16,872 bases of DNA from Fidelibacterota bacterium (lineage in GTDB: Bacteria; Fidelibacterota; UBA2242): NCBI GenBank assembly GCA_049975265.1, contig JBNGDF010000042.1, positions 1 to 16,872 on the forward strand, written 5' to 3'. The notes beneath the pieces were generated by a model. It had not been told where the DNA came from. It saw nothing but the letters and a program-made list of their open reading frames with translations, and did no database searches. Below, piece by piece: positions 1 through 16,872 of this stretch; positions within the stretch are counted from its first letter, which is position 1, and every line of letters starts with the position of its first letter. The position numbers and the translations under genes are program-made.

Positions 1-3
1 AAT

Positions 4-41
4 CTCTGTGATCCTCTGTGTCTCCTCCGTGTGTCTCCGTG
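4..41 (+). repeat. Four CTCYGTG units; probable right arm of an inverted-repeat element that begins upstream of the window
   Basis: CTCTGTG at 4-10 and 14-20, CTCCGTG at 25-31 and 35-41; same core as the right arms at 13783-13800 and 16843-16872. Confidence 0.7.
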
Positions 42-145
42 TCATAAAATCTTTCAACTTGCCCCCCGCCTGAATGATGCCGATTCATCGGGAATCCCTC
101 AGAATGAAACGCGTTGGTAATCACAAGACCGATACTGTGTAAGGG

Positions 146-9357: not shown

Positions 9358-9426
9358 CAACCTTCGGAAGGTTATTCTGTAACATCGTTACAGGCTGAAA
9401 CATTGTGAATAACCTTCCGAAGGTTG
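9358..9426. repeat. Nested palindrome (REPIN-like doublet), possible bidirectional terminator
   Basis: Perfect 20-bp inverted repeat CAACCTTCGGAAGGTTATTC (9358-9377) / GAATAACCTTCCGAAGGTTG (9407-9426), between convergent pstB and citF. Confidence 0.85.
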
Positions 9427-12457: not shown

Positions 12458-13705
12458 ATGGGAAAGACATTCAGTGAAAAAATCCTGGGAATGAAAGCCG
12501 GGAAAAGTGTCGTACCCGGCGAGATCATTGAGGTGGAACCCGATGTCGCCATGAGCCATGACAACACGGCAGCCATTTCCAAGACCTTTTATAAGATCGG
12601 TGTGGAGCGGGTCTGTTACCCTGAGCGGCATGTGGTTATTCTGGATCACTGCACGCCGGCAGCCAACGAGAAGTTTGCCCAGAATCATAAGGATATCCGG
12701 GAGTTTGTCCGCCAGCAGGGCATCCGGAATTTTTACGATATCAACGTCGGTATCTGTCATCAGGTAATGCCGGAAAAGGGGCACGTCTGGCCGGGTGCTC
12801 TGATTGTGGGCGCCGATTCGCATACCACTTCCTACGGTGCATTTGGCGCTTTCTCGACGGGAATCGGTCGCAGTGAAATGGCGGCTATCATGGCGCGGGG
12901 AAAGATCTGGCTGCGGGTTCCCGAGACGATCCGGGTGTATGTGGAGGGAAAATTCCCGCCGGGAATTTCCTCCAAGGATTTGATGTTGAAAATAGCTGGA
13001 ACCATCGGTGCCGACGGCGCGCTGTACAAAGCCATTGAATTCTGCGGACCCACAATTGAAGAAATGAGTGCCGCCAGTCGCTTCGTGTTGGCTAATATGG
13101 CGGTGGAAGTGGGTGCGAAAGCCGGATATATGGTTCCGAACCGGGCGACACTGGACTTTTTAAAAGGTCGCGTTACCCGGGATTTTGAGATTGTCCGCTC
13201 CGATCCCGATGCGGAGTATGAGACCGAGTACCGCTTTGATGTATCGGATTTGGAGCCGATGATTGCCAAACCCCATACCGTTGACAATGTCGTTCCCGTG
13301 AGTACAGTAAAAGGGACGAAAATTGATCAGGTCTTTTTTGGTTCCTGTACCAATGCCCGGGTCGAGGATTTTGAGGTGGTTGCCGAAGTACTGCGGGGCA
13401 AAAAGGTGCATCGCGATGTGCGCATGCTGGTCTTTCCGGCATCTCAGGAAATCTATCTCGAGGTGCTGAAACGGGGCTGGATTACGGAACTGGTGGATGC
13501 CGGCTGTGTGATTATGAATCCCGGTTGTGGTCCCTGCATGGGTAACCATGAGGGTGTGCCCGCCAATGGCGAAGTGACGCTGGCGACCTCTAATCGAAAT
13601 TTCAAGGGTCGGCTCGGAAATAAAGAAGCCTTTGTCTATCTGGTCAGTCCCCGTTCGGCAGCGGTTTCGGCATTGACGGGTAAGATCGAGGATTTCAGAG
13701 AATAG
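12458..13705 (+). CDS. Homoaconitase / 3-isopropylmalate dehydratase large subunit (LeuC/HacA type)
   Basis: VILDH, GICHQV, GADSHTTSYGAFG, FFGSCTNAR and PGCGPCMG (three Fe-S Cys), TSNRNFKGR; AGGAG RBS. Confidence 0.93.
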   Translation: MGKTFSEKILGMKAGKSVVPGEIIEVEPDVAMSHDNTAAISKTFYKIGVERVCYPERHVVILDHCTPAANEKFAQNHKDIREFVRQQGIRNFYDINVGICHQVMPEKGHVWPGALIVGADSHTTSYGAFGAFSTGIGRSEMAAIMARGKIWLRVPETIRVYVEGKFPPGISSKDLMLKIAGTIGADGALYKAIEFCGPTIEEMSAASRFVLANMAVEVGAKAGYMVPNRATLDFLKGRVTRDFEIVRSDPDAEYETEYRFDVSDLEPMIAKPHTVDNVVPVSTVKGTKIDQVFFGSCTNARVEDFEVVAEVLRGKKVHRDVRMLVFPASQEIYLEVLKRGWITELVDAGCVIMNPGCGPCMGNHEGVPANGEVTLATSNRNFKGRLGNKEAFVYLVSPRSAAVSALTGKIEDFRE

Positions 13706-13800
13706 CTGCGGAGGCACGGAGGACTCTGAGAATAATGATACCGGACGAGAATATTAGGATACTTTAAGTTATTATGAACATGCCTCTGTGTCTCTGTGGC
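13705..13800 (+). mobile_element. Small inverted-repeat element (MITE-like) of the CACGGAG/CTCTGTG family
   Basis: Left arm 13705-13722 pairs with right arm 13783-13800; 60-nt AT-rich interior; 13705-13731 is 22/27 identical to 16714-16740. Mobility is inferred. Confidence 0.65.
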
Positions 13801-13822
13801 ATTAAATAGAGAGGAGTCAGGA

Positions 13823-15507: not shown

Positions 15508-16707
15508 ATGGCGAAACGAACAATTGTTACCATGCCCGGTGATGGGATTGGTAAAAATGTCCTCCGGGAAGCGCTGCGCGTTCTGGATGCAGCCGGTTTC
15601 GAAGCGGATTATGTGGATGCTGATATCGGCTGGGAATTCTGGTGCCGGGATGGCAATCCGCTGCCCCAACGAACCTTGGACCTGATCGAAAAGCATAAAA
15701 TCGCGCTGTTTGGGGCGATCACCTCAAAGCCCAAAGATGCCGCGGCTGCCGAACTCAGTCCCGATTTACAGAGCAAAGGATTGGTCTATTCCAGCCCGAT
15801 CGTCGGTCTGCGGCAGCATTTCAACCTGGATATCTGTATGCGTCCCTGTCGTTCCTATAAGGGCAATCCACTGAATTTCATCCGGCGCGGTGCCGGGGAC
15901 TCAATCGAGGAGCCGGAAATCGATGTGGTCATTTTCCGCCAGAACACCGAGGGTCTTTACGGCGGGGTGGAGTGGAGCAATCCGCCGGATATCGTATACG
16001 AAGCCCTGATGACTCATCCCAAGTTTGTCAAAAATTTCAGTCAAACGCCCAGAGAGGAGCTGTCGGTCTCGACCCGGATATTTACCAGGAGAGCCACCGA
16101 GCGGATTTTGCGGGCGGCGTTTGACCATGCGAAAAATTACGGATATCGCTCGGTTACAGTCTGTGAAAAACCCAATGTTATCCGTGAAACCTCCGGAATG
16201 ATGTACAAGATGGCACAGCAGATCCAGAAAAGCGATTATCCGGAGATTGAACTTTGGAATACCAATATCGACGCTCAGATGATGTGGCTGACCAAGAATC
16301 CGGAAGATTATGGTGTCATCGTGGCGGGGAACATGTTCGGGGATATCGTTTCCGACGGATTTGCGGGGCTCATCGGCGGGCTGGGTTTTGCCTGCTCGGC
16401 GCAGTTTAATCCCGACAGCGGCATCGGCGTTTTTGAGCCGACCCACGGCTCGGCGCCGAAGTATGCCGATTATCCGGTCTCCATCGTCAATCCGATCGCC
16501 ATGATCGAGTCCGCCTGTATGATGCTGGATTTCATCGCTGAAAACGATCTGGCAGCCCGAATCCGTAAAGCCGTGGCAGAGGTCATTGCCGAAGGGAAGG
16601 TCCGGACATATGATATGCTCAAAATGCCCGGGCGACCGGATGTGCTGGAAAGGGGCGCCACTTCGACGCAGCAGATGGCAGATGCAATCATTGAAAAGAT
16701 AAAGTAA
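15508..16707 (+). CDS. Beta-decarboxylating dehydrogenase (isocitrate/isopropylmalate family), homoisocitrate-dehydrogenase-like
   Basis: PGDGIG, LFGAITS, YSSPIVGLRQ, FRQNTEGLY, EKPNV, NMFGDIVSD, FEPTHGSAP, NPIAMI; AAGGAG RBS. Confidence 0.92.
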   Translation: MAKRTIVTMPGDGIGKNVLREALRVLDAAGFEADYVDADIGWEFWCRDGNPLPQRTLDLIEKHKIALFGAITSKPKDAAAAELSPDLQSKGLVYSSPIVGLRQHFNLDICMRPCRSYKGNPLNFIRRGAGDSIEEPEIDVVIFRQNTEGLYGGVEWSNPPDIVYEALMTHPKFVKNFSQTPREELSVSTRIFTRRATERILRAAFDHAKNYGYRSVTVCEKPNVIRETSGMMYKMAQQIQKSDYPEIELWNTNIDAQMMWLTKNPEDYGVIVAGNMFGDIVSDGFAGLIGGLGFACSAQFNPDSGIGVFEPTHGSAPKYADYPVSIVNPIAMIESACMMLDFIAENDLAARIRKAVAEVIAEGKVRTYDMLKMPGRPDVLERGATSTQQMADAIIEKIK

Positions 16708-16710
16708 TTT

Positions 16711-16872
16711 TTTGCCACGGAGACACGGAGGGCTCAGAGACCTTTTATTGATTAATTTCAATTCACGTTTGATGAAAGAAGGAGTGAAACGATTTATTAT
16801 TTGAACAGAGATGTTTGGAATATATTGGAAAAATAAAAATTTTCTTAGTGTACTCTGTGCCTCTGTGGCAAA
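16711..16872 (+). mobile_element. Inverted-repeat element of the CACGGAG/CTCTGTG family carrying a gene remnant
   Basis: Left arm 16711-16740 pairs with right arm 16843-16872 at 19 of the outer 20 positions, counting 2 G-T pairs; about 100 nt AT-rich interior. Confidence 0.7.
16742..16804 (+). pseudogene. C-terminal remnant of a GxxExxY-family protein gene
   Basis: Translates as LLLINFNSRLMKEGVKRFII*, resembling the family C-terminus as I recall it (GLLINFNxxxLKxGIKRxx). The rest of the gene is absent. Confidence 0.7.

Follow-up and report, generated by a model that had tools for sequence, protein, structure and literature searches.

A GxxExxY gene tail between inverted arms is a likely recombination scar of an apparently unpublished class of nuclease-gene cassettes

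We examined the end of a 16,872-nt stretch of Fidelibacterota DNA (the window, which is the entire contig C42 of a 2.86-Mb assembly of 66 contigs that is 95% complete), where two inverted repeat arms enclose the last codons of a GxxExxY gene. This feature is likely a local recombination scar in which, judging from sequence comparison, the outer left arm was joined to codons 104-122 of the adjacent gene. The class of repeat-plus-nuclease cassettes to which it belongs is real and apparently unpublished. The features needed for the argument are listed below.

13703..13801, forward strand: sister hairpin lacking a gene, with arms of the same class, located between the genes for the aconitase-family large and small subunits
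15508..16707, forward strand: host gene 5' of the site, isocitrate/isopropylmalate dehydrogenase family (PF00180); an HD-domain gene adjoins in relatives
16711..16740, forward strand: outer left arm, three units of about 9-nt period, CACAGAG/CACGGAG class; orthologous arms in loci L007-L018
16741..16744, forward strand: junction bases between arm and gene tail; the same junction is found in genome G002 by alignment
16745..16804, forward strand: GxxExxY codons 104-122 and stop, 60/60 identical to the intact gene at C33 367-426
16805..16843, forward strand: what remains of the left arm (16805-16811) of the downstream hairpin, with its A+T-rich loop, a copy of C33:427-465 (compare the downstream hairpins of L010 and L018)
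16844..16872, forward strand: right arm, three units, reaching the contig end

The outer left arm begins 3 nt past the dehydrogenase stop codon, and the last base of the right arm (16872) is the final base of the contig. The core arms (16711-16730 and 16853-16872) are complementary at 17 of 20 positions, two of the three mismatches turn into G-U pairs as RNA, and both arms extend to three units of about 9 nt (16711-16740; 16844-16872). The interior between the arms is 75% A+T. When positions 16708-16872 were folded as DNA the structure was better than 200/200 shuffles (z -3.9), and as RNA it again beat 200/200 with the stronger z-score (-5.4). Bases 16742-16804 translate into a 20-aa peptide whose sole start-like codon is TTG, with no evident ribosome-binding site 5' of it. 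The arms, the A+T-rich interior and the translation are as an earlier sequence-only reading had described them. Right arms of the CACAGAG/CACGGAG class are also found at window positions 1-44 and 378-395, so that, with the terminal arm, the contig starts and finishes in such repeats. Two further repeats were seen in the window. Positions 146-303 contain a 32-nt direct repeat in three copies, each built of 7-nt units, and then an inverted arm, an arrangement like the gene-less repeats of four-helix-bundle type at L077 and L094. A perfect 20-bp inverted repeat lies between convergent genes at 9358-9426; words like it are repeated at several contig ends, and it is therefore likely to represent another repeat family.

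A profile search of the source genome detected four whole PF13366 genes. One of them, at the start of contig C33 (58-426, 122 aa), scored 154 bits against TIGR04256 (cut-off 35) and 152 bits against PF13366 (cut-off 22). Window positions 16745-16872 match C33:367-494 at 125/128 bases, a stretch made up of the final 19 codons and the flank behind them, and have no other long match in the genome. Peptide residues 2-20 are identical (19/19) to the C-terminus of the C33 protein, and the tail DNA is identical at 60/60. The earlier identification of the peptide as a GxxExxY C-terminus was thus borne out through a full-length TIGR04256 member, with two corrections: the homology starts at 16745 rather than 16742, the first Leu standing where the gene has Gly103, and the missing codons number 103, not about 110. 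The peptide by itself, which is too short for such scans, gave no Pfam or NCBIfam match in HMM searches, and a direct peptide-to-profile comparison gave 93.9%, a value biased by the presence of the C33 gene in the alignment.

The final 46 bases of the window (16827-16872) match C33:1-46 at 44/46, and the ribosome-binding site and intact gene come after this segment on C33. C33:1-52 is identical to C33:449-500, which means that direct repeats, spaced 448 bases apart from start to start, bracket the intact gene. The HD-domain gene lies directly behind it. The genome has a single dehydrogenase match and a single HD match, at the C42 end and the C33 start, respectively, and a dehydrogenase is found upstream in 67/81 HD loci of relatives. 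Because of this synteny and the overlap, C33 is likely the continuation of C42. The likely order would then be dehydrogenase, left arm, tail copy, loop, right arm, ribosome-binding site, intact gene, loop, right arm and HD gene. No contig spanning the C42-C33 join was found among the assembled contigs of relatives in the public runs examined, and C33 begins with the two-base variant of the downstream copy, not with the variant of the window. The unspanned join, the two mismatches and the downstream-type start of C33 leave room for extra gene copies, a circle or a strain mixture. The window tail differs from that of G002 at 8/60 bases; since it is identical to the C33 gene at 60/60, it has been homogenised with, or newly copied from, the intact gene.

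Next, we compared the alleles at the dehydrogenase-HD junction in relatives. The window's outer left arm is orthologous to the left arm of the intact cassette's upstream hairpin. In the congeneric G002 (locus L007), which is 87% identical to the window in the host gene and 89% in the element, the left arm meets the gene tail at the same junction, and the HD gene comes next without an intact GxxExxY gene in between; L064 is identical to the G002 locus and was counted once. The allele that the sequence-only reading described, with both arms and the tail but without the gene, is therefore present in G002. A hairpin, an intact gene and another hairpin occupy the junction in G017 and G035, GxxExxY genes broken in different ways in G004, G021, G031 and L065, a single gene-less hairpin in G005, G013 and G014, and a short gap in G015, G025 and G044. 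We surveyed 98 loci, from which 18 lacking one host gene (including L008 and L018, which contig ends truncate) and 2 duplicates were removed, leaving 78. Intact GxxExxY was found at 1 of these, broken genes at 4, an arm pattern without a gene at 8 (2 of them doubtful: L077 and L105 match the arm pattern but carry repeats of the 7-nt type by eye), a four-helix-bundle gene (TIGR02436) at 7, a gap of ≤60 at 33 (with N-masked L023 misfiled among them) and something else at 25. Thus intact, broken, gene-less, four-helix-bundle and empty states all occur among relatives in this comparison, which the earlier reading had proposed for full, deleted and empty alleles. Unrelated genes of the 200-aa size class without evident repeats fill the same junction in L074, L093 and L112.

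Contigs from two public sequencing runs (X3 and X5) came from close relatives, 92-93% identical to the window, which they track to 16739 and 16733, respectively; most public runs contained a small share of the sequence words and were not used to infer habitat. Both contigs fit two units in tandem. The first unit is cut to gene position 339 in X3 and X9 and has a joint of 54 to 409 in X5, and the second is whole in X3 and internally deleted in X5 (joint 151 to 310). The depth of the common repeat was approximately twice that of the flanking genes (46-58 versus 19-28 in X3; 164 versus 82-90 in X5), although contig depth is a poor measure of copy number. Tandem GxxExxY duplications are also found in G008 and G005. 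In the latter (L184, G005:C66:5000-8400) a 772-bp hairpin-gene-hairpin unit is duplicated, with a 405-aa host gene between the copies. The upstream hairpin of X3 and X5 has an interior that differs from that of the window and is of equal length (109 letters separating equivalent positions). In the upstream loops of G017 and G004, the first 8-10 bases are those found at gene codons 104-107.

The sister hairpin at 13703..13801 marks a second variable site. At this aconitase-subunit junction G031 (L294) carries a whole GxxExxY cassette, G001 and G017 carry gene-less hairpins, several genomes have a short gap, and, among the matches listed, the nearest relative G002 (L284) and many others have a four-helix-bundle cassette. 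As judged from these alignments, the occupants of the dehydrogenase-HD and aconitase junctions are replaced on short evolutionary times. In the same citrate-lyase/HD operon of another family (L185, L186 and L187), two GxxExxY genes that differ in clade and in arm type sit at separate junctions. The source genome contains 10 hairpins of the class, gene-less ones among them, compared with 0 in 2 shuffles, and all four independent complete gene-less sites (4/4) lie within about 6 kb of a gene, a zone that makes up 1% of the genome (the inferred join is counted). We considered spread limited to cis as a general rule and dropped it: single arms occur on other contigs and the hairpins of G063 are dispersed genome-wide. 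Gene-less hairpins were seen clustered near a GxxExxY gene and sharing its arm sub-type at C20:36320-41600 and C49:488-8000 of the source genome; the GxxExxY gene on C49 lies directly behind a Cas4-like gene.

How might the window copy have arisen? In-place recombination between the direct repeats bracketing the intact gene would join the arm to a copy of the tail, and such repeat recombination would need no special enzyme. By one route, to which we give about an even chance, the gene and its downstream hairpin would first be duplicated in tandem; an exchange anchored on the near-identical right arms would then remove the upstream loop, arm, ribosome-binding site and 103 codons from the first copy. 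By another, about half as probable, the interior of the upstream hairpin would be overwritten in register by the 98 bases preceding the downstream arm, giving the same product with no gene lost. A later collapse between the two 128-bp repeats would produce the G002 allele. The equal length of the X3/X5 upstream interior fits exchange in register with the right arms, and the 8-10-base seed in the upstream loops of G017 and G004 fits a microhomology deletion; both points are post hoc and each comes from one independent lineage. The scar junction is common to the more distant G002 and absent from the closer X3/X5 organisms, and this distribution calls for parallel events, exchange between lineages or later replacement.

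Three other explanations of the window copy were weighed against a local scar. The sequence-only reading had taken it for a non-autonomous derivative that kept its arms and lost its gene, moved or movable as a unit by GxxExxY in trans. The outer arms are indeed intact and complementary, and gene-less hairpins do exist, both in the source genome and dispersed round the single-contig genome G063. The window allele, however, has no second copy elsewhere in the source genome; its sole near-identical match is the end of the C33 gene, which probably lies right behind it, and it occupies the orthologous site of intact cassettes. The intact unit at that site is a gene between two whole hairpins (L010, L018), not between one arm pair as supposed, and the loops of gene-less hairpins match each other only in adjacent pairs. 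Target-site duplication was not above chance in 72 gene-bearing elements, the mean longest flanking direct repeat being 2.21 versus 2.24 in permuted pairings, of which 119/200 were as high, with element ends placed approximately. An independently dispersed derivative is thus quite improbable. We concluded that the observation was confirmed and that its interpretation was partly supported.

A strain mixture, in which the assembly merged a deleted, G002-like allele with the intact allele of C33, would make the deleted cassette stand alone in some cells. G002 does carry the deleted allele alone, the C42 end and the C33 start differ at 2/46 bases, and public run X1 contains two variants of tail, loop and arm, each at about half the gene depth (3.3 and 3.9 versus 5.7). 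Against it, what stands in front of the C33 gene is a duplicate of the downstream loop and arm rather than the ordinary upstream hairpin found in X3/X5, G017 and G035, and tandems are present in close relatives. We regard a mixture as improbable, though less so than the dispersed derivative. What suggests an assembly chimera is that the feature runs to the very end of the contig and duplicates the start of C33; the same junction lies inside a contig of G002, another species, at 89% identity, which rules out a chimera for practical purposes. The local scar remains the likely origin.

To place the scar in its class, we collected 149 whole GxxExxY genes from this phylum and from 80 loci in other genomes, whose labels cover about 20 phyla; 141 genes had at least 150 nt on both sides. 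The 80 loci were fetched with the patterns of one clade, and related genes are not independent. On the upstream side a left arm, and on the downstream side a right arm, were found for 80/141 genes, compared with 0/105 control flanks (650-900 nt away) and 0.1 in shuffles. In the source genome all three genes of the window's arm class are bracketed (3/3), and the suggestion that arms and gene form one unit, with the same arms flanking full-length genes, therefore holds. Among the 141 genes, 50 have one arm on each side, 14 have two whole hairpins and 14 have no arm of the searched pattern; the architecture thus varies, and both the gene between one arm pair and the double-hairpin form exist. The upstream and downstream flanks of the same gene share 6-mers (median cosine 0.225 versus 0.067 for flanks of different genes). 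Arm type changed 17 times on a tree of 121 labelled sequences versus 43-49 times with shuffled labels, the tree being a FastTree tree of a short alignment with one clade over-sampled. Arm type tracks protein clade, a pattern that linkage alone, without recognition, could give.

The gene was found in 93/121 genomes of the phylum, at 1-23 matches per genome, and is patchy at orthologous sites. An arm excess, defined as arm doublets exceeding a reversed-pattern control by at least 10, was detected in 69/93 genomes with the gene versus 3/28 without it; 24/93 genomes with the gene show none. The median distance from the preceding stop codon to the left arm is 14.5 nt (n=60) and that from the right arm to the next start is 20 nt (n=67), with the upstream neighbour co-oriented in 69/86 loci. 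Rfam gave 0 matches in 9 loci. Viral contigs gave 54 pattern matches, none of them a relative, with the patterns of one clade. No published description of the arm-gene association was found in the largely non-subscription literature searched.

The protein itself was examined through the C33 member. G24, E27 and Y30, which form the GxxExxY motif, are present in it and in 149/149 collected proteins; the window stub, missing codons 1-103, does not include the motif. Residues of catalytic type are conserved as D66 (149/149), E76 (148/149) and K78 (149/149). The structure model (pLDDT 95.6) has a restriction-endonuclease-like PD-(D/E)xK fold, and its best structure matches are Cas4 SSO0001 (Z 8.1, rmsd 4.3, 100 aligned), BpuSI (7.8, 2.7, 91) and Hjc (6.7, 3.1, 85). 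The top matches are tied, so no single nuclease family is closest. Foldseek returned no match with E < 0.001 for the model, and a sequence search of solved structures gave 0 matches at E up to 10. GxxExxY is thus a predicted PD-(D/E)xK nuclease. With this modelled fold and the as good as invariant D66/E76/K78 it is a reasonable candidate for the enzyme of the element, as had been proposed. The family is listed as PD-(D/E)xK, of unknown function and with multiple transfers, in PMC3424549, and a passing mention of it occurs in 10.1101/2021.01.26.428298.

For the class as a whole, the most likely reading, which we hold tentatively, is a selfish cassette whose predicted nuclease acts on its own arms at the DNA level. 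GxxExxY would recognise its own arm type as an extruded or single-stranded DNA hairpin and cut; repair would copy the arms, either alone or together with the gene, into the spacer that separates a stop codon from the following ribosome-binding site; the insertion would leave no target-site duplication; and the gene would often decay later while the hairpins remain. Stated in full, and with the same reserve, GxxExxY may be the enzyme behind a so far undescribed class of mobile DNA that spans phyla: a predicted PD-(D/E)xK nuclease of 120 residues that would recognise its own arms of 9-nt period, insert cassettes bounded by hairpins behind a stop codon and ahead of the following ribosome-binding site, with no target-site duplication, and compete with four-helix-bundle cassettes for the same operon junctions.

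A passive origin ranks second and appears rather unlikely: the repeats would be host hairpins that stabilise or terminate mRNA, spread by slippage and homologous replacement of junctions, and the nuclease gene would only travel along and do something else. The absence of the transposase hallmark agrees with this, as does the use of the same junctions by the unrelated TIGR02436 cassettes with 7-nt repeats (7/78 at the dehydrogenase-HD junction and many between the aconitase subunits). It leaves unexplained why, inside a single genome, each protein clade retains an arm type of its own and why arm excess follows the presence of the gene. More doubtful still, and third in rank, is action at the RNA level, where the arms would pair in the operon mRNA, loop the cassette out and bring the upstream stop codon near the next ribosome-binding site, with the stem cut by GxxExxY or a host RNase as with intervening sequences. 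The co-orientation of upstream neighbours, the short median spacings, the two mismatches that become G-U pairs and the stronger RNA z-score point in this direction, but purifying selection on insertions gives the same placement, the nearest folds are mostly DNA nucleases, and there was no Rfam family match. The selfish cassette acting on DNA stays our leading, tentative reading.

The stub itself is probably a scar, and its value lies in a single orthologous junction with matched empty, intact, broken and gene-less alleles. This series offers ready substrates and controls for testing, for the first time, a very common family whose function is unknown (93/121 genomes; about 20 phyla). If the mobile-class reading is true, the site would display the full life cycle: empty, intact, gain by tandem or circle, in-register recombination provoked by the nuclease, and decay to a gene-less hairpin. 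Action of the protein on its arms, if real, would also explain a widespread class of intergenic hairpins, which break short-read assemblies as well, as happened here.

Several known systems resemble the window feature or its class in part. Recombination in tandem duplications leaves gene remnants, and the window has a 3' gene stub beside an intact copy and homogenised with it; unlike such remnants, the stub lies between the arms of its own cassette, at a site that was repeatedly filled, broken and emptied in relatives. MITEs and other non-autonomous derivatives of insertion sequences keep terminal inverted repeats and lose the coding interior. The window feature shares the terminal inverted repeats (17/20) with them but has no target-site duplication, no dispersed copies of the allele and no DDE transposase. 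ORF-bearing 23S rRNA intervening sequences are linked to the four-helix-bundle (TIGR02436) cassettes, in which, as in the GxxExxY cassettes, inverted arrays of short repeats enclose a small gene at the same operon junctions. Their protein is unrelated and their repeat units are 7 nt, and the window site, in contrast to an intervening sequence, lies between protein-coding genes and not in an rRNA gene.

Within the GxxExxY family (TIGR04256; PF13366, PDDEXK_3) the window tail is the C-terminus of a full member, although the window holds only 19 codons; the family's row in PMC3424549 mentions no flanking repeats or cassettes. The comparison with REPIN-RAYT systems bears on the class. As described in PMC8049555, REPINs are extragenic hairpins of two inverted repeats and a variable spacer that include gene-less copies, repeats are more numerous in genomes carrying the enzyme, and host machinery amplifies or deletes them locally; RAYTs belong to the tyrosine (HUH) transposases and are inherited vertically as single-copy genes. 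The GxxExxY class likewise has an extragenic hairpin with a variable spacer, gene-less copies and an excess of repeats where the enzyme gene is present. It differs in its enzyme, TIGR04256 with a PD-(D/E)xK fold rather than a tyrosine transposase, in its 1-23 matches per genome with turnover at operon junctions, and in arms made of tandem 9-nt units. If GxxExxY does act on its arms, the class would be a repeat-mobilising system working like REPIN-RAYT with an unrelated enzyme.
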